DNA from: an uncultured delta proteobacterium
GTDB lineage: Bacteria > Desulfobacterota > Desulfobaccia > Desulfobaccales > 0-14-0-80-60-11
Length of the DNA: 64,000 bases
Direction: 5' to 3'
Assembly (NCBI GenBank): GCA_963812015.1
Contig: CAWETI010000003.1
Coordinates: forward strand, 416,001-480,000
The position numbers and the translations under genes are program-made. A model generated the notes under the pieces. That model was not told where the DNA came from, made no database searches, and was given only the letters and a program-made list of their open reading frames with translations. The number at the start of each line of letters is the position of its first letter. Positions within the stretch are counted from its first letter, which is position 1. Shown piece by piece: positions 13,538 through 41,595 of the stretch.

Positions 13538-13622
13538 AATAGCCTGTAAAGCCAAACCCATCGCGAGGCGGGGACGGAAAGCCACGGGTCTCAATTAAAC
13601 GAGATAGCCGGGTTGCCTGGGA
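13538..13622 (+). ncRNA. c-di-GMP-I (GEMM) riboswitch aptamer
   Basis: GCCAAACCC-GCGA-GGGGACGGAAAGCCACGGGTCTC...GAGATAGCCGGGTTGCC matches GEMM-I consensus; upstream of HD-GYP gene. Confidence 0.85.
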
Positions 13623-28400: not shown

Positions 28401-28688
28401 ATGGCAATGGGAGATCTTATTTCGGCAGAACTACAGTTCTTACGTAAATATTTGATCAAAAGGTTGAATAACAGCGAATATATAATTACATTTGAGGAAA
28501 TGGTGACTTTAATTGCCCTAGTCAACGATTGCTTAAAAGCTGGGCCCGGCTCTATTTTCGATTTACTCTCTGCCTTGCATACTAAAAAGATGGATTTGTA
28601 TATCACAAAGTTCATTCTCCTTAGAAATCATTTGGTTAATAATAACCGCGATCTTAATTTTCTTGAATATTATCAGCAGAGTAGATAA
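28401..28688 (+). CDS. Hypothetical protein
   Basis: 95 aa ORF with RBS aagagg; no recognisable motif. Confidence 0.4.
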
Positions 28689-28780
28689 AATTGTCGATAA
28701 TTTATTAGAATATATGACCTGCCCCCCAAAAACTGATCCACATGTTAAGTTAGAGTGGTGGATCGAATGGAGGCAGAGAG

Positions 28781-29985
28781 ATGAGCAAGAAGCGGTTTAC
28801 TCCGGAGCAGATCATTGGGAAGCTTCGGGAAGCAGAGGTGGCCCTGGCACAGGGGGAGACGGTGAGCCAGGTTTGCCGAACCCTGGGCATTTCCGAACAG
28901 ACTTTCTATCGTTGGCGCCGGGAGTATGGTGGTTTAAAGGTAGAACAGGCCAAGCGGCTCAAGGCTCTGGAGCAAGAGAATACCCGGCTGAGACGGGCGG
29001 TATCGGATCTCACCCTGGACAAGCTGATCCTCCAGGAGGCGGCAAGGGGAAACTTCTAAGCCCGACCCGTCGCCGGCAATGCATCGAGCATATCCGGAAG
29101 GCTCTACCGGTGTCGGAACGCCGTGTCTGCGGGGTGATTGGGCAACCGCGTGCGACCCAGCGTTACCAAGCTACCGAGCCTGATGACGAGGTGGGGCTGA
29201 CTGCTGCTATCATTGGCTATGCCACCAGGTATGGGCGATACGGCTATCGCCGCATCCTGGCGTTTTTGCGAAGTGACGGCTGGTTGGTGAACCATAAGAG
29301 AATGGAACGAATCTGGGGACAGGAGGGGCTGAAGGTGCCCCAGAAGCAGCCCAAGCGGAGCAGATTGTGGTTAACCGATGGATCTTGTGTTCGTCTCCGG
29401 CCCTGCTGGCCGAACCATGTTTGGTCCTACGACTTCGTGATGGCGCGGACCCACGATGGCAAGGCTTTCCGTATGCTCACCATCATTGATGAGTACACGC
29501 GGGAATGCCTGGCCATCGAGGTATCCCGGCGTTTTGATGCAGATGCGGTGTTATATCGGTTGACGGAGCTGTTTGTGTCACGGCGCCCGCCAGACTATAT
29601 CCGATCGGACAACGGGCCTGAGTTTACGGCCAGGGCAGTTCGGGAGTGGTTAAGCCGAGTAGGGGTCAAAACGCTCTACATTGAACCTGGCAGTCCTTGG
29701 GAGAACGGTTACAACGAGAGCTTCAATGGAAAGTTGCGGGATGAGTTGCTCAACGGGGAGATTTTCTATACCCTGAAGGAGGCCCAGATCCTGATAGAGC
29801 GCTGGCGGTGGGAATACAATACGGTAAGGCCTCACAGTGCCTTGGGGTATCGACCACCCGCACCCGAGGCCATCGCCGTGACCCCCAGAGATCCTGGCTA
29901 CGCTATGCTCCGCCAGGATCTCTGGCTTGACTTGATGGTCTGCTCCCCGAAAACTGGACCATTCAAAATGAGAGAATTTTGCTAA
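28781..29985 (+). CDS. IS3 transposase OrfA/OrfB (-1 frameshift near 29050)
   Basis: [45 protein letters not shown]. Confidence 0.9.
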
Positions 29986-31328
29986 GATGAAAATATCTGG
30001 CAAGGAGGATTTTCTCGATGAAGCGGTCCCGATTTACCGACCAGCAGATTGCCTTTGCCCTGCAGCAGGCCGAGCAGGGGACCCAGGTGGCCGAGGTCAC
30101 CCGCAAGATGGGGGTTAGCGAGCAGACCTTTTACCGCTGGAAAAAGAAGTATGGGGGCCTGATGCCCTCCGAGGTCCGCAAGCTCCGGCAACTCGAAGAG
30201 GAGAATGCCCGGCTGCGCCGGCTGGTGGCGGATCTGTCCCTGGACAAGGAAATGCTCCAGGAGGTAATCCGAAAAAAGCTCTGAAGCCTGCCCAGGTACG
30301 GGCCACGGTGGAGCTTTTGCGCACCTGTTACCAGGTGAGCATCCGGCGGGCCTCCCAGACGCTTCCCGGCCCGCGTTCCACCCTGTATTACCGGTCCCGC
30401 AAACCTGAGCAGGCACCCCTGAGACACCGGATCAAGGAGATTGCCACCGTCCGGGTGCGCTATGGCTACCGGCGGATTCACACCCTCCTGCAACGAGAAG
30501 GCTGGGGGGTCAACCACAAACGAGTTTATCGGCTTTATTGCCTGGAAGGTTTGCAGATGCGCCACAAGCCTCCCCGGCGCCGGGTCAGCGCCAAGTTGCG
30601 AGATGACCGCACCGATGCCATCCGACCCAACCAGTGCTGGTCCATGGATTTTATGGCCGATGAGCTCTTTGATGGCCGGCGCCTTCGGCTCTTAACGATA
30701 GTGGATAACTTTAGCCGTGTTAGTCCGTTTATCGGGGTAGGATTCAGCTATAAGGGCTATGATGTGGTCTCGGCTCTAAACCTGGCGATGGCCCAATATG
30801 GGGTGCCGGAGTGCATCCGGGTGGACAACGGCCCGGAGTTCATCTCCAAAGAAGTTGACCTGTGGGCTTACGCTTACGGCGTGGTCCTGGACTTCTCCCG
30901 GCCGGGAAAGCCCACGGACAACGCCTTCATCGAATCGTTCAACAGCCGTTTTCGGCAAGAATGCCTGAATGAGCACTGGTTTTTGAGCCTGGAGGATGCT
31001 ACAGAGAAGATCGAAGCTTGGCGGGGCCACTACAACGAGCAGCGGCCGCACAGTAGCTTGGGGTATCAATCGCCAGTGGAGTATCTCTCGGGGGCTCTGC
31101 CCCCACCCCCCGGGAGTTTATCGCTTTGGGGGAATCTGGAGGGGCAGGAACCAGAAAGGCAGAACCCATAAGGCTCTGCCCCTCCGTCATCCACCCGCCT
31201 CGGCGCTCAGGTTGCTCTCCAGCAGGGCCCTATCCTCCGGGCGGGCAAGAAGAATATACCATGACCCCTTAAGGTGGAAAAAGCGAATTTGTCTCATTCA
31301 AAATGGTCCAAATTTGGGGGCATCTCCA
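29936..31328 (+). mobile_element. Nested IS3-family element with 5-bp TSD CTTGA
   Basis: IRs TGGTCTGCTCCCCGAAAACTGGACCATT / AATGGTCCAAATTTGGGGGCATCTCCA; CTTGA at 29931-29935 and 31329-31333. Confidence 0.9.
30018..31171 (+). CDS. IS3 transposase OrfA (30018-30284)/OrfB, A6G frameshift
   Basis: MKRSRFTDQQI; WSMDF, VDNGPEF, PGKPTDNAFIESFN. Confidence 0.9.
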
Positions 31329-33736: not shown

Positions 33737-33918
33737 TGATGACTTTCCAAGGATATAACTTCATTCAGATTATTAAAATATAGATATGGCCTGAATATGG
33801 AAGGTTTTTGGCTTCCTGATAAGTGTCGGATCATAGATGCTATGAAAGGTTCCTTAAGTAAGCCTCTTGGTATAAAAGTGGAGTTCCTCAAGAAAAAAAC
33901 AGGAAAAGGAGGCTTACC

Positions 33919-35070
33919 ATGGACCACAAGCAGGGAAACCAGGGTCGAGAACAGAGCGCCCAGGTGCCGGTTTTGTACGTCGCCTTCGAACTGGCTAACA
34001 GCACCTGGAAGATGGCGTGCACCGATGGCAGCAAGTTGCGGCATCTCACCGTGACTGCTGGGGACCTGGCCCAAGTCCAAAGAGCGATTATCGGAGCCAA
34101 GCGGCATTTCGGTATGGGGGACAAGGTGCACACGGTGAGCTGTTATGAGGCCGGACGTGACGGTTTTTGGCTGCACCGGTATTTGCACAGCTGCGGGATA
34201 GACAATGTGGTGGTGGACTCTGCCAGCCTGGAAGTGAACCGGCGGTTGCGGAGGGCGAAAACCGACCGGGTCGATGCGGGGAAACTATTGAGCATGCTGC
34301 TCCGCTATCACGGCGGGGAGAAGCACCTGTGGCGGGTGGTGCGGGTGCCGAGCCGGGAGGATGAGGACGCCAGGCATTTACACCGGGAATTGGAGGCCTT
34401 GAAGAGCGAGCGGACCCGGCACCGCAACCGGATCCATGGGATTTTGATTCAACAAGGGCTGCGTGTCAGCAACCCGAGCACGAAAAAGTTTGTCAAGGAG
34501 TTGGAACTCATGCGCACCTGGGAAGGCCGGGAATTGCCAGCCGAGATGAAGGTGCGGCTGGTACGGGTGCATGAACGGCTACGCATGGTGGAGGAGCAGA
34601 TCAGCGGCCTGGCAAAAGAGAAAACGCAGCTTCTTAAAGTAGAGAACGCCAGGATGGCGCAAGTGGCCCAGCTCCTGAGGCTGCCCGGGATCGGCCCGGT
34701 AAGTTCCTGGACCTTCGTCATGGAGTTTTTCGGCTGGCGCCGTTTTCGGAACCGCCGGGAAGTGGCCGCCCTGGCGGGCCTGACCTCTACCCCTTACGAC
34801 AGCGGCAAGAGGTTGCGAGAACAAGGGATCAGTAAAGCGGGTAACCGGAGGGTGCGCACCCTGGCCATTGAGATCGCCTGGGCCTGGCTGCGGTTTCAAC
34901 CCCGAAGCAAGTTAAGCCGGTGGTTCCTGGAAAGGTTTGCCGCTGGCGGGAGCCGCATGCGACGCATCGGCATCGTGGCCCTGGCCCGGCGGCTGCTCAT
35001 CGATCTGTGGCGTTTTCTGGAGTACGGGGTGGTCCCGGAAGGAGCCCAGGTAAGGCCACTGGCAATTTAA
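33919..35070 (+). CDS. IS110-family recombinase/transposase
   Basis: RuvC-like YVAFEL, YEAG, AKTDRVDA; C-terminal PGIG, GLT..PYDSG, ISKAGN, VALARRL. Confidence 0.92.
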   Translation: MDHKQGNQGREQSAQVPVLYVAFELANSTWKMACTDGSKLRHLTVTAGDLAQVQRAIIGAKRHFGMGDKVHTVSCYEAGRDGFWLHRYLHSCGIDNVVVDSASLEVNRRLRRAKTDRVDAGKLLSMLLRYHGGEKHLWRVVRVPSREDEDARHLHRELEALKSERTRHRNRIHGILIQQGLRVSNPSTKKFVKELELMRTWEGRELPAEMKVRLVRVHERLRMVEEQISGLAKEKTQLLKVENARMAQVAQLLRLPGIGPVSSWTFVMEFFGWRRFRNRREVAALAGLTSTPYDSGKRLREQGISKAGNRRVRTLAIEIAWAWLRFQPRSKLSRWFLERFAAGGSRMRRIGIVALARRLLIDLWRFLEYGVVPEGAQVRPLAI

Positions 35071-35095
35071 CCCAGAATACGGAGTTGATGTAGAA

Positions 35096-35294
35096 GTTTT
35101 GGTTGGTGAAGTCGCCCGTGTAACTGCTGGGTGCTCTTGAGTCACCGTTTTCATAGAGTGGGCGCTTCAGCAATCGGTTCCCCGCAGCGCAACCCCGCGC
35201 ATGCAGCATGCGGTGCCTGACTAAGAGTCAGCACGGATAGAAGCTTGATGGGGGCTTTGGCCCCATCGATTTACCGGAACCAACCAACCAAAAC
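35096..35294 (+). ncRNA. Predicted bridge RNA / seekRNA of the IS1111-group element
   Basis: Closing stem gttttggttggt/accaaccaaaac; two hairpin-capped internal loops whose strands match target flanks and donor junction. Confidence 0.75.
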
Positions 35295-35623
35295 GGCTCA
35301 CAGGTCTCTAACAAAAATTGCCTAGGAGGATAGCTCTCTTCGCCTCGGTCTGAGGTTTTTAGCATGCCCCGTCGAGGTGTCAAGGTTTCCCTGCGGCGCC
35401 CTGCGACCTTGACACCTCTTCCTGGGCATGCGGCTGGGGAAGCAGGCCGACGGCGAAGGGATGGCCTTTTGACCTCGGGCTCAGGGATGGAGGTTTAACT
35501 GCCCGGAAGACAAAAAAGGCTTGACAAGAGGAACCCACATAGAAGCAGTTATCGAGAGTTCTAAAGGCGGGTTCTGCCCTTGAGAAAACCTTTTCCTGCT
35601 CATCTCCCTGCCTCCCGTCGATC

Positions 35624-36070
35624 TGGTCTGTTCCCGAAAACTGGACCATTCATAATAAGAAAATTTTGCTAAGATAAACCGATCTGGCAAGTAGGATTTT
35701 CTTGATGAAACGGTCCCGGTTTACCGATCAACAGATTGCCTTTGCCCTGCAGCAGGCTGAGCAGGGGACCCAGGGGCTGAGGTCACCCGCAAGATGGGGA
35801 TTAGCGAGCCAGACCTTTTACCGGTGGAAGAAGAAGTTTGGGGGCCTAATGCCTTCGGAGGTCCGCAAGCTCCGGCAGCTGGAGGAGGAGAACGCCCGGC
35901 TGGGCCGGCTGGTGGCGGATCTGTCCCTGGATAAAGAAATGCTCCAGGAGGTGATCCGAAAAAAGCTCTGAAGCGTGCCCAGGTGCGGGCCACGGTGGAG
36001 CTTTTGCGCACCTATTAACAGGTGAGCATCCGGCGGGCGACCCAGACTCTATCCGGCTCCCGCTCCACCC
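35624..36070 (+). pseudogene. Truncated copy of the nested-type IS3 (left end, degraded orfA, start of orfB)
   Basis: Close match to 29936-30385 with indels and a stop; no right end. Confidence 0.85.
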
Positions 36071-37991: not shown

Positions 37992-39527
37992 TCAACGTTG
38001 ATCCTTTTTCATCTCCTGCGGAACCCCGCCGTAATTTTTGGTGGTGGTTACCAGACCTTTCGAGCCGGTGATATGGTATCGGACCTCCGGTCCCCGGTTG
38101 CTGGCCCGTTCGGTGAGCCGGGCGGCCAGCTCCTTGTAATAGTAGAAAAGGCCCAGGCCGTCCCCCTGGCCCTGGCCCCCCGCCAGAACCAAAGCGCCGC
38201 AGGCGGAATTCGCCACGTCGTCATGCCCGGCCGGGCCGTGGGTTATCATGTCCTTGCCCATGGGCCGCACCCGCCGCTCCAGGCCAAGCAATTCCGAGAG
38301 CAAAGCCTGGTCGTCCAGCAGCTCCACCTGGCCCCTGGTGAACAGGGGCAGGGCCTCCAGGAAGATCTGCGACCTGTCCCTTACCGAGCTCCGATAGTCA
38401 ATGCCGTGCTCCCGGAATGCCGAGACGACCCACTCGGCCGCGTACTTGTCCCCCGTCACTTGAGAGCATTTGAACTCCTTGAGCACCTGGGCATATTCGG
38501 CCACCACCTCACCCGGATTGAAGGGGGGGACCCGCCGCCGGATCACGTCCAAAACAATTTGGCCATCGGCTTCACGGTGCGCCAGGCCCAGGGTGAAGCT
38601 ATCCTGGCGGCCCCCGGAGGGGGCTGCGAAGCCGAAGTACCGCAAACCTTCCTTTGGCGGCAGCTCTCGCCGACCATGAACGACCAGGGGCTCCAGGGTC
38701 TCGATGTCCAGGAACCCCGAAATGTCGTCCCGGAACAGGGCCAGGTACTCGGTCTTGGCGCTTGCGTGGTCCTCAGCCAGTGCCTGCTGCACCACTTCCG
38801 CGGACAGGGTCGGGTTCATGGTCCGGGTGGCCGCCTGCCAGACCAGGACCCGCCCGTCCTTGCCGTAGTAGCGGGAGAATGCCTCCCACATGACACCCTG
38901 TTTGGCGTAGGGTGAGCTTATGGCGATCAATGGCCCACCAGTGGTGGCAAGGCCGGGGCGCAGACTCCGCAAGATCTCCTTGCCGGGGTCCCTGCCCTCC
39001 ACTCTCCAGAAACTTGCTTCTTCCAGAATCACTGCCAACAGGGTGTATCCACGAACGGCCGCCGTGGAGCATGTCAGAATCTTGATGCTCACCCGGTTCT
39101 TCAGCCTTATCTCCTGGGCCAGGTCCGCCTCCACCATGCCCGCCAGGATGGGGGAAAGGCGGAATATCTCCCGGCAATATGAAATGATTATGCCGGCCTG
39201 CTCCCGGTCGTTGGCGATCACGGCCACCAGGCCGATCTCGCCGGGGGCCAAGACGGCCGTATCGGCAAAGGCCGCACTGAAGCAGGCCGTAGCCGCCGTG
39301 ATCCGGGACTTGCCGCCCCGCCTCCCCACTATGAAGTAGACCTCCCCGGCAGGGCCTTGTGGGGCCGCTTGCCGCCCCGTGCATCTCTGATAGAGGGGGA
39401 GGTCAATGTCTGCCAGGGGGAGGCCGTAGGCGGCCTTTAGAGCCGTCCTCCAGGGCTGCCAGGGTGCGAGGTCTGGGAACCCCGCCCCTATCAAATTTCT
39501 GTCTCCAATGGCTTGAATTATATTCAT
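37992..39527 (-). CDS. Terminase large subunit-like protein
   Basis: Walker A GRRGGKS, LEEASFW, ISSP, C-terminal GDKY, HDD nuclease residues. Confidence 0.8.
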   Translation of the reverse strand: MNIIQAIGDRNLIGAGFPDLAPWQPWRTALKAAYGLPLADIDLPLYQRCTGRQAAPQGPAGEVYFIVGRRGGKSRITAATACFSAAFADTAVLAPGEIGLVAVIANDREQAGIIISYCREIFRLSPILAGMVEADLAQEIRLKNRVSIKILTCSTAAVRGYTLLAVILEEASFWRVEGRDPGKEILRSLRPGLATTGGPLIAISSPYAKQGVMWEAFSRYYGKDGRVLVWQAATRTMNPTLSAEVVQQALAEDHASAKTEYLALFRDDISGFLDIETLEPLVVHGRRELPPKEGLRYFGFAAPSGGRQDSFTLGLAHREADGQIVLDVIRRRVPPFNPGEVVAEYAQVLKEFKCSQVTGDKYAAEWVVSAFREHGIDYRSSVRDRSQIFLEALPLFTRGQVELLDDQALLSELLGLERRVRPMGKDMITHGPAGHDDVANSACGALVLAGGQGQGDGLGLFYYYKELAARLTERASNRGPEVRYHITGSKGLVTTTKNYGGVPQEMKKDQR

Positions 39528-39594
39528 TGTCTCCCCAGCAATGCCTTTTTATGGGGTCGGGGCGTATCGCTTGAAATCGGACCCGAAACGGGGT

Positions 39595-40218
39595 TTAAAG
39601 ACAGGGTCCGCCGGCCGATTTCATGGCCTCCATACCCCGTTTCCTGCCCTCTGCGAAAGAGGCCATTTGCTCCGGGCTCAAGGGGCGCCCCCTCCTGGCT
39701 ATCCTGGCCCCGGCCAGTTCGCAGACCTGCTCCAAGACCGCAGCCGGGAAACGGATTTCCTTTCCCAGGCGCTCATCCGTCTCGAGGGCCTGCTTGGCTT
39801 CCCTCACCCCGGCCTGAACCTTCGCGGCCGTCTGGGTCGTGGTCAACAAGGCGAAGGATTTCTCTGCCTCGTCGTAAAGATGGATCACCCCGCCGTTCTC
39901 GCAGATGATCCATTCGTACCAATGGAGCTGACCTTTTTTGAATTGAGGTTGCTCGCAAACGAAGGCAGGGTCGAGTCCCATGTGGTATCGGTAGCGGGTT
40001 AGTTTGGCGATCGTGAACGGCCCGGCCCAGTCCTTCTCCAGGATTCTTTTCCATTGGTAATGCGCCGGTGCCTTCCCTTCCGAGACTATCATCAGCACGA
40101 CGCCGCCCACATTGGCCTTGCCCGGCAAGCTGTCCATGATGTCTCCTGCATTTTTCCCCACCAATAAAAAAAAGCCCCGCAACGGCATTGCTGCCAGAAA
40201 GCGGGGCCTCTTGGCCAC
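39595..40218 (-). CDS. Hypothetical protein (start possibly 40137)
   Basis: Long ORF with coding-like composition, co-oriented with terminase. Confidence 0.6.
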   Translation of the reverse strand: MAKRPRFLAAMPLRGFFLLVGKNAGDIMDSLPGKANVGGVVLMIVSEGKAPAHYQWKRILEKDWAGPFTIAKLTRYRYHMGLDPAFVCEQPQFKKGQLHWYEWIICENGGVIHLYDEAEKSFALLTTTQTAAKVQAGVREAKQALETDERLGKEIRFPAAVLEQVCELAGARIARRGRPLSPEQMASFAEGRKRGMEAMKSAGGPCL

Positions 40219-40369
40219 ACCTTGCAGATTTATTTTGGGTTACTTGATTCCTAGACTCTTTAGTGTCCACCTCACGATATTGATGATTGCGCCGTAAAGG
40301 TCGGGGGCTATGTCCCTGATCTTGAAAAGGGCAGCGGCAAGTTCATTTTCGGTCATTTTCGGCCTGCCT

Positions 40370-40404
40370 TATTTTTAGGAAAATATATTATTTTCCTAAA
40401 AATA
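40370..40404. promoter_or_regulatory. Perfect AT-rich palindrome upstream of tyrosine recombinase (candidate recombination/operator site)
   Basis: tatttttaggaaaata-tat-tattttcctaaaaata, 16-bp arms. Confidence 0.5.
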
Positions 40405-40474
40405 CTGTCCTTTTCCTTTATCTTTTCCTTAATTTATTATATATTTTCATTAAAATAAATGGGGGGCCAAGACC

Positions 40475-41095
40475 ATGGGACAGTACAAAATCACCCGTGA
40501 CAAGTTCCTTTCCACCGATGAAGTCAAGCGGCTCTTGAAGGTCTGCGAGGAGCAGGCCGACCTCGACTTGCTCAAGGGGCGGCAGACTTGGGTCACCCGG
40601 CATATGCTGGTGGCCCTGGCCCTGCGTAGCGGCCTCAGGGTGGGCGAGATCGCCGCCCTCAAGATCGGGGACATCCACCTGGGAGGACGAGAAACCTATA
40701 TCAGTGTTAGGCGCGGCAAAGGGGACAAGCCCAGGGATGTTTTTTTCAACGGGTCGCTGGTCAAACCCTTGAAGCGGTACATCGACATCAAGGCCAAGAC
40801 CTGGAAGCAGCCTGTCAGCCTGGGTGATTCCCTTTTCTCTCATGGGGAGGGAAAGCCCTTCACCACCATGGCCCTGTACTTCAGCTTCAAGAAGGCCTTG
40901 GAGAAGGCCGGGCTGCCCCTGCATCACACAATCCACCATGCCCGTCATACCTTCGCCACGCATTTGCTGGCTGACACGGGAAACCTCAAATTCGTGCAAA
41001 AACAGCTTGGTCACGAAAACATCGCCCACACCGCTCTCTACGCAGACATCCTCCCGGAGCAGCGGCAGGCCCTGGCCGACAAATTGAGCATTTAG
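40475..41095 (+). CDS. Tyrosine recombinase (catalytic domain only, resolvase-like)
   Basis: SGLRVGE, GKGDKPR, HHARHTFA, LGH....TALY. Confidence 0.9.
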   Translation: MGQYKITRDKFLSTDEVKRLLKVCEEQADLDLLKGRQTWVTRHMLVALALRSGLRVGEIAALKIGDIHLGGRETYISVRRGKGDKPRDVFFNGSLVKPLKRYIDIKAKTWKQPVSLGDSLFSHGEGKPFTTMALYFSFKKALEKAGLPLHHTIHHARHTFATHLLADTGNLKFVQKQLGHENIAHTALYADILPEQRQALADKLSI

Positions 41096-41106
41096 AGATG
41101 ATTGCA

Positions 41107-41595
41107 TCATTCACCTTTACCCTGGCCCACGGCCTCTACCGACACAATTTGGCCGGATTTTAGGGCGTCCAGGTATTCTTGCAGGCTGGGGGCCTTCTCC
41201 GGGAGCTGCCCATCTTTCGCCAAGGCGCTCATTGCCATAATGTCCGCCCTAATGCTGTTGCAGAGCATCAAATAATCTTTCTCCGTCCCGGCCCCCAGCT
41301 CCACCTTACCCCCCAGCAGCGCCGCCTCGTAGGACGCCGCGCGGATCAGCTTGACGGCGCACCGCTGGGCCAATAGCTGGGCCGGGCCGGGCGCCGGCTC
41401 CTTGTGGCCTTCCAATAACAGTTCCGTGGCCCGCCTCAGGACTTGCGCCAGCCGCGTACGGCCGTCTATGTCGTGGCGCTCCAGGGCCATATACAGGCCG
41501 TGCTTCACCTTTCGCAGGGGTTTGGGAAACAAGGAGTAAGGGCTTTTGGGCCTTTTCCTATCATTTCCCGGTTTATCGTTTGAATCATCTTTCAT
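41107..41595 (-). CDS. Hypothetical protein, possible terminase small subunit
   Basis: KHG motif, helical, upstream of and co-oriented with TerL. Confidence 0.45.
   Translation of the reverse strand: MKDDSNDKPGNDRKRPKSPYSLFPKPLRKVKHGLYMALERHDIDGRTRLAQVLRRATELLLEGHKEPAPGPAQLLAQRCAVKLIRAASYEAALLGGKVELGAGTEKDYLMLCNSIRADIMAMSALAKDGQLPEKAPSLQEYLDALKSGQIVSVEAVGQGKGE

Follow-up and report, generated by a model that had tools for sequence, protein, structure and literature searches.

Covariation suggests that the right-end guide RNA of an EEDD clade of IS110-family elements mirrors the bridge RNA of IS621

Introduction

In IS621, an RNA-guided element of the IS110 family, handshake guides that follow the second guide of each RNA loop pair with the non-cognate strand after first-strand exchange (PMC11208158, PMC13626964), and this pairing favours insertion over excision (PMC13626964). 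Among IS1111 elements, bridge RNAs have been predicted in 93%, at the right end and with donor guides in multi-loops, and the RNA has been proposed to have moved between the ends (PMC11208160). Left open in PMC11187229 were the questions of whether IS1111-type elements have a donor-binding loop and whether their reversed guide order reflects a different mechanism. Further prior art is found in 10.1101/2025.05.14.653916, PMC13604230, 10.1101/2024.06.21.599552 and 10.64898/2026.01.12.699009. The present analysis concerns an IS110-family element with a predicted guide RNA in a 64,000-nucleotide (nt) stretch of an uncultured delta proteobacterium of the Desulfobaccales (assembly GCA_963812015.1, contig CAWETI010000003.1, positions 416,001 to 480,000 of the forward strand), referred to below as the window.

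The locus is best explained, with high probability in our judgement, by an intact, mobile element of the ISRel9/ISGdi7 clade of the IS110 family that would carry a two-loop bridge RNA in its right end and act as IS621 does, with the recombination site inverted. An original prediction made from the DNA letters had described an IS1111-group element with a bridge or seek RNA guiding its recombinase. The guided-recombinase reading is supported by covariation across homologues, and both the right-end RNA and its guide order had already been described for IS1111 elements (PMC11187229, PMC11208160, in the portions accessible). The element is thus one more member of the IS110 family, whose class and whose right-end guide are ideas already in print, and its combination of an EEDD active site with a right-end bridge RNA is a variant of a known RNA-guided recombinase rather than a new kind. 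In the text examined on the handshake, the donor loop and strand exchange together with IS1111, no passage states the mirrored geometry described below; figures, picture-only supplements, further supplement parts and two Science papers (Perry, Pelea) may show it.

The element, its ends and its copies

The element is 1,709 bp long, has an AG core and occupies positions 33835..35545. A second copy elsewhere in the genome (G000:C3:892183-890476) agrees with it at all 1,707 bp that separate the cores (100% identity) and has different flanks, GAGATAT-AG-CAGTAAC. Among 35 copies of the repeat that the element interrupts in the window (weight-matrix scan), the core position is followed by CAG in 26 and by the left end of this family in 2, and two element-free paralogues match across both flanks (82% over 125 bp and 76% over 124 bp). 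Because the second copy with its other flanks and the uninterrupted paralogues are independent facts, the crossover is fixed within AG, and the core originally predicted is borne out by both. Ends and target have this short core in common, without target duplication or terminal inverted repeats. The non-coding ends measure 82 bp on the left and 473 bp on the right, compared with a clade median of 390 bp for the right end. Identical copies stand at several guide-matching sites, two in this genome and five and two in other genomes; the element is apparently intact and recently mobile.

Remnants of related elements were seen in the same genome, a left end at G000:C2:328305-328480, at the same position of the target repeat, and a right end at G000:C3:885252-885463. 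The genome also holds other IS110 genes of the DEDD type, and a DNA search of plasmids with a further IS110 from this genome returned no named reference.

The predicted guide RNA and its covariation

The RNA region is more stable than expected of its composition (z = -2.98; 1 of 200 shuffles equally stable), and the stem and the two inner hairpins claimed earlier appear in its fold. An alignment of 47 of the 74 available RNA regions shows compensatory changes in 12 of 16 consensus pairs and leaves both guide regions unpaired. An Rfam scan gave no family covering the predicted RNA at 35096-35294. The four guide words of the original prediction, TAACTGCT at 35121, TCATAG at 35151, AGCAT at 35205 and ATAGAAG at 35237, were confirmed, as were both junctions. 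The target guides hold as to position and are refined to longer words of 9 and 7 nt, and the description "bottom-strand guide first" holds as to order, its refined meaning being that the first guide pairs with the top strand. Among 3,000 dinucleotide shuffles of 35071-35520, none contained all four words and none had both target guides 20-45 nt apart; AGCAT taken alone is weak, being present in 855 of the 3,000. The 14-mer spelled by the target guides has no site with one mismatch or fewer in the genome and 17 sites with two or fewer, 7 of which lie in the target repeat.

Homologues were collected by searches in genomes, in metagenomes and in the bacterium's own class, which yielded 123 loci once 5 integrase and 9 duplicate loci had been dropped; a left end could be assigned at 93 of these, a right end at 88 and the RNA region at 102. 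The patterns used to find ends were derived from element ends only, never from the target guides. Three of the 102 RNA regions were too short, leaving 99, and removal of 22 redundant regions left 77 below 85% identity. Locus L015, whose left end is missing and whose pattern match was spurious, was excluded from all left-end counts. The covariation scan was unanchored, comparing every RNA column with every flank position, and its null was drawn from 30 permutations, with a largest excess of 0.21-0.25.

Covariation far above the permuted controls ties the two target guides and the first donor guide to the flanks or ends of the element that carries them. Left-target positions -1 to -5 are identical to RNA positions 35154 to 35150 at frequencies of 1.00, 0.90, 0.88, 0.66 and 0.63, where 0.40, 0.31, 0.28, 0.25 and 0.23 are expected (n = 59), and right-target positions +2 to +6 are complementary to 35126..35121 with an excess of 0.29-0.40 in the best cells (n = 65). 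At the left end, position +3 is complementary to 35207 (0.86 vs 0.37) and position +2 to 35208 (0.93 vs 0.65). Guides pair with the DNA of their own element in 40/64, 45/58 and 21/43 cases, compared with 8.5%, 8.8% and 12.1% when other elements are substituted. The bases of the right end, which form the left donor, gave no covariation above the null in the column scan because they are invariant. The outcome that would have told against the original prediction, homologue flanks that mismatch their own loops, was looked for in 59-65 non-redundant homologues; the guides vary in step with the target and left end of the element they come from, and the prediction therefore stands on this point.

Handshake bases

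The strongest right-target signal lies outside the target loop. The first right-target base equals RNA position 35244, the base that follows the second donor guide, at a frequency of 0.91 vs 0.44 expected; the two are identical in 59 of 65 homologues, and four of the six misses are compatible with G-U pairing. Five identical copies within a single genome differ in the base matched by 35244, which must therefore be part of the target. The target loop has A (52) or G (6) directly behind its second guide, facing an invariant first A of the left end (n = 58), and the next position matches the left end in 41 of 58. Compared with the cognate DNA, the handshake positions match in only 2/59 and 5/64. 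On a tree of 63 proteins, which omits 2 of the 65, each handshake trait changes 12 times and the pair 13 times; eight pairs of changes are independent and none is opposite in direction (median p 0.008). The tracking of the target by donor-loop base 35244 is, to judge from these patterns, a handshake of the IS621 type.

The same relation was sought in named IS1111 elements. In IS4321, in IS5708 and, as judged by eye, in an IS4321-like copy, the donor-loop guide together with its next base spells the integrated right junction; over the six named cases considered the fit is a hint and not a test. The automatic junction search chose the wrong repeat for L144, which was then read by eye, and found none for ISShdy1. 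In L139 (IS4321), L144 and L141, the second core position is not the same in donor and target, and it is the target's version that the second donor guide has (by eye), as expected for pairing that follows strand exchange.

Mirror-image comparison with IS621

Read on the minus strand, the core is CT, as in IS621. Compared with the donor of IS621 as found in an E. coli genome, the present donor agrees at 11 of 14 positions when flipped and at 4 of 14 unflipped, and across the clade 10-12 of 14 positions agree in 50/50 flipped donors, compared with 3-5 of 14 unflipped. When the IS621 design rule (PMC11208160 supplement) is applied to the flipped sites, it predicts 28 of 35 guide bases (8/9, 6/7, 1/2, 5/8, 7/7 and 1/2 for the successive segments). 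This comparison covers donor, RNA and protein; the flanks of both IS621 copies used are nested insertions, and a frameshifted copy was set aside. Those two copies, L196 and L197 of E. coli, each stand directly after a partial IS621 RNA region, apparently inserted into its own left end, and the ranking by which they were picked favoured such cases.

The second guides pair with the strand that has CT, which for the gene is the minus (template) strand; we infer from this that the order in which the top-strand match comes first is the IS621 arrangement, except that the recombination site is turned round with respect to gene and RNA, in which case the minus strand would be cut first. The likeness to IS621 and ISCro4 extends to the domain layout and fold, with catalytic positions that align one to one (PMC11208160, PMC11208158, PMC13626964, in their accessible portions; PDB 8wt6, 9t56), to two guide loops of 7+2 and 5+2+2 layout with similar scaffold words around the target guides, and to a CT core in the strand with which the second guide pairs, the handshake bases, the predicted junction promoter and the choice of a repeat as target. 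In contrast to IS621, where the RNA precedes the gene, here it follows the gene and the recombination site is inverted relative to it. The present protein also has Glu at the position of Asp11, is 383 rather than 326 amino acids long and shows about 20% identity in structural alignment; its first donor guide omits the core, its second is contiguous, lacking the 2-nt bulge, and its donor loop sits within a multi-branch structure.

A wider claim has, in our judgement, rather better than even probability: the reversed guide order would be merely the mirror image of IS621, with right-end RNAs retaining its loop layout, CT core, donor sequence and handshake bases and with the minus strand cut first; the rule would reach some canonical IS1111 elements (IS4321, IS5708), and a very large clade would use an EEDD active site. 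The covariation map suggests one geometry common to IS110-type and IS1111-type guides. Within the clade, covariation supports the view that the donor loop is functional and includes handshake bases, and it predicts that the minus strand goes first, and the guide map of this deep EEDD clade offers candidates for programmable recombination. If the claim is true, the IS621 design rules would be applicable directly, on the other strand, to thousands more recombinases.

Relation to IS1111 and to catalogued relatives

The assignment to the IS1111 group holds for the layout and for the catalogue label of relatives, and fails for the long sub-terminal repeats and for the position in protein trees. As in ISEc11, IS4321, ISKpn4 and ISPa11 (PMC11187229, in its accessible portions), a long non-coding region follows the gene, the top-strand match lies 5' of the bottom-strand match, so that the top-strand guide comes first, the joined ends would form a promoter, and extensions of 7 bp on the left (AGATGCT-ATG) and 3 bp on the right (CAT-AGA) are present outside ATG/CAT, both extensions being in homologues partly a product of the end-finding patterns. 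Like IS4321, the element inserts into the end of another mobile element. The IS1111 elements differ in having a DEDD tetrad, perfect or near-perfect sub-terminal repeats of 11-13 bp and proteins of 330-350 amino acids, whereas here the motif is EEDD, the repeat is short and imperfect (6 of 13 positions ungapped, or 10 with a one-base offset, by eye) and the protein has 383 residues. They also fall in a separate, fully supported protein clade, with about 25-28% identity in local matches. In two small, midpoint-rooted trees with long branches, the Glu-bearing clade of the present protein (support 99-100) stands apart from the clade of ISEc11, IS4321, IS5708 and ISShdy1 (99) and also from IS621.

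Catalogued relatives are found among ISfinder entries of the ISRel9 type. The motifs G(R/L)DGFW, RAKTD and IAW/LAW-WLR are common to the present protein and to ISRel9, ISGdi7, ISMno25, ISSph11, ISAzs35 and ISMno20, as read from printed domain alignments in the accessible supplements of PMC11208160 and PMC11187229; the likeness is by printed motifs, the first acidic residue being gapped out in the printed rows. Four of the ISRel9/ISGdi7-type entries are labelled IS1111 in the source data of PMC11187229. A Bradyrhizobium plasmid protein with ISRel9-type motifs groups within the Glu clade, and its element has the same right-end loop and handshake base. Membership of the present element in the ISRel9/ISGdi7 clade is part of the joint explanation given in the Introduction, with the high probability stated there. 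A literature search for ISRel9 together with IS110 gave no match, and no experimental or RNA-level description of ISRel9-type entries was found in it.

Recombinase and active site

Both PF01548 (RuvC-like, N-terminal) and PF02371 (Tnp) score over the Pfam cut-off in the recombinase, and NF033542, "IS110 family RNA-guided transposase", matches at 195 bits over a cut-off of 140. Residues E24, E77, D116, D119 and S295 align with D11, E60, D102, D105 and S241 of IS621, so the first acidic residue is Glu, as had been read from YVAFEL. The DEDD tetrad is therefore not present literally; since four acidic residues are retained, EEDD is a variant and not a loss of the site. Glu occupies this position in 120/120 close proteins and in 105/107 locus proteins, with the other four catalytic residues kept. 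A predicted structure (mean predicted local distance difference test score, pLDDT, 81.5) places E24 at the end of the first strand, and its best matches are IS621 and ISCro4 (E 2e-12). Because identical copies stand at several guide-matching sites, the EEDD enzyme is inferred to be active. A protein search returned at least 8,000 clusters at E ≤ 1e-20, a figure that does not imply clade membership of all of them. Literature searches for EEDD with IS110 and bridge RNA, and for EEDD with transposase, gave no match.

Proposed mechanism and competing explanations

The ends, the core, the second copy, the four guides, their covariation and the target-tracking base are read from sequence, and the steps that follow are modelled on IS621. 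The element would leave as a circle, whose joined ends would form a promoter, TTGACA-(17-18)-GAT(G/A)(C/A)T, that transcribes the recombinase and then the RNA. In reconstructed junctions the spacing between -35 and -10 boxes is 17-18 in 47/50, and a promoter scan of the plus strand of the linear element found nothing upstream of gene or RNA. A recombinase tetramer would bind target and donor through the two loops, with S295 attacking the DNA and E24/E77/D116/D119 forming the Mg2+ site. Cleavage and exchange would begin on the strand paired with the second guide of each loop, and the bases that follow these second guides may then pair with the strand arriving from the partner, which would favour insertion. 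Within this host family the guide would be directed at one end of a small tyrosine-recombinase element and of its miniature forms.

Several observations weigh against this account. The guide-spelled 14-mer fits 12 of 14 positions at the first copy and only 10 of 14 at the second, whose target has two guide-matching bases left of the core. The right-target signal is spread over two diagonals because the register of the first target guide is variable. The core is missing from the first donor guide (CT comes next in 3/56), and the second donor guide, which is invariant and was used as an anchor, shows no covariation for that reason. At the second handshake position of the donor loop, which is nearly always T, no tracking of the target is seen, and among named IS1111 elements one has a wobble at the handshake base while ISEc11 and one ISCARN28-like element do not fit. 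Part of the donor identity to IS621 across the clade results from the end-finding patterns themselves. Among the 20 sequencing runs listed, one contains the stretch and may be its source. Contigs of four runs list no joint of right end to left end, and two RNA runs contain only relatives' contigs at 85-99% identity (a 0.05 share of the stretch); both searches covered assembled contigs only, and neither result is evidence either way.

The alternative that survives best, although it is unlikely, follows the seekRNA model, in which a short processed target-loop RNA works alone, the protein recognises the ends through sub-terminal repeats and the donor-loop matches are a by-product. It also speaks against the bridge-RNA account that in ISEc11 target-loop RNAs of 70-100 nt dominate and suffice (PMC11187229, in its accessible portions) and that ISEc11 and its kin moved with target-loop RNA alone; the second donor guide, moreover, is invariant and gives no covariation in favour of its match. 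A by-product would nonetheless not be expected to covary, whereas the first donor guide follows the left end, and base 35244 follows the target on independent branches. Nor do the repeats offer much to recognise: across the clade they amount to a run of 3-4 bp (ATG/CAT plus 0-1 base) in 45/50 elements and reach 10 or more of 13 positions in only 5/50.

Slightly less likely still is a real bridge RNA whose chemistry is not that of a plainly mirrored IS621, so that 35244 would serve excision or copy-out, with the donor loop binding the integrated right junction, or the strands would be exchanged in another order. The extended second donor guide equals the integrated right junction as well, and sequence cannot separate a post-exchange handshake from junction binding; Glu in place of Asp may reshape the metal site; and a further point against mirrored chemistry is that copy-out, a single-strand route and direct transfer have been reported for CazIS110-1 (10.1101/2025.10.25.684509, in its accessible portion). 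Against this alternative, the two extra bases agree with the IS621 handshake in position, strand and reciprocity once the DNA is flipped, and pairing of this kind in IS621 favours insertion over excision, as noted above. Very improbable are a Glu24 protein that is catalytically impaired, with the element moved in trans by another IS110 recombinase, and chance guide matches: D11 of IS621 is essential and coordinates Mg2+ (PMC11208158, in its accessible portions), and the genome's other DEDD-type genes could supply such an enzyme, yet the conservation of Glu with the other catalytic residues and the identical copies at several guide-matching sites speak against the former, and shuffles and permutations exclude the latter.

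Target repeat and neighbouring features

The target repeat is present in 42/69 genomes of the family; its forms measure about 100 and 218 bp, and their far end is fixed. Among 19 loci, one relative (L150) has a full form, which is about 1,044 bp long and includes a tyrosine-recombinase gene, and a broken one is present here (G000:C2, about 302470-303516). On this comparison, the target is most plausibly one end of this small tyrosine-recombinase element and of its miniature forms. Of 16 left-end pattern matches in the class, five lie clearly at this repeat end (by eye). The second copy of the element is inserted in another repeat family with the same last bases (G000:C3, about 892185-892330), which was also seen at G000:C2 292186-292313 and 1105151-1105277 and is joined to the end of the first repeat at C2:826410. 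An integron attC site, the target of ISKpn4- and ISPst6-type elements, was considered and rejected: the genome has no integron integrase over the cut-off, and 12 repeat copies, folded as DNA, have no consistent attC-type hairpin.

In a comparison of 83 genomes, repeat copies in three (L168, L169, L170) contain an extra AAG at the insertion point of the element, compared with 157 plain copies. These look like scars of imprecise loss, possibly by way of the CATAG common to target and right end. A similar extra-base site was seen in this genome near G000:C3 882161 (minus).

Table 1. Features of the element and its flanks, in window coordinates
Feature	Position	Strand	Remarks
Left target flank	33780..33834	+	end of repeated element (35 genome matches) interrupted by the insertion sequence
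Core AG, left copy	33835..33836	+	CT on minus strand
Short left end	33837..33918	+	opens with right-donor ATGCT; then imperfect sub-terminal repeat ATG-AAA-GGTTCCT (33842-33854)
IS110-family recombinase	33919..35070	+	383 amino acids
Predicted bridge/seek RNA	35096..35294	+	enclosing 12-bp helix 35096-35107/35283-35294
First target guide (7 + core)	35120..35128	+	predicted to pair with top strand of core and right target
Second target guide (5 + core)	35150..35156	+	predicted to pair with bottom strand of left target and core
Target-loop handshake positions	35157..35158	+	AG here, AT in most of clade; match first bases of left end
First donor guide	35205..35209	+	AGCAT
Second donor guide	35237..35243	+	ATAGAAG, last five bases of right end plus core
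Donor-loop handshake base	35244..35244	+	C; tracks first right-target base across clade
Passenger hairpin in right end	35362..35431	.	13-bp perfect arms 35374-35386/35406-35418; few close relatives only
-35 box of predicted circle-junction promoter	35521..35526	+	TTGACA; 18-nt spacer to GATGCT (-10 from left end)
Right sub-terminal repeat and 3-bp extension	35529..35543	+	AGGAACC-CA-CAT, then AGA
Core AG, right copy	35544..35545	+	
Right target flank	35546..35552	+	CAGTTAT

The passenger hairpin is found in L006 and L011 and is absent from most homologues, some of which have unrelated hairpins at the same place. Genes or fragments of IS3-type transposases, as read from open reading frames, flank the region at 28663-31171 and 35630-36000, one of them adjoining the element on the right. 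Farther on, a 511-residue open reading frame within 37992-41595, without a Pfam or NCBIfam match, presumably resembles a terminase large subunit. The same interval has a 206-residue tyrosine recombinase and small open reading frames, and may be a satellite or a prophage remnant. The sole match of Rfam in the window is a c-di-GMP-I-GGC riboswitch at 13543-13621, above the cut-off.

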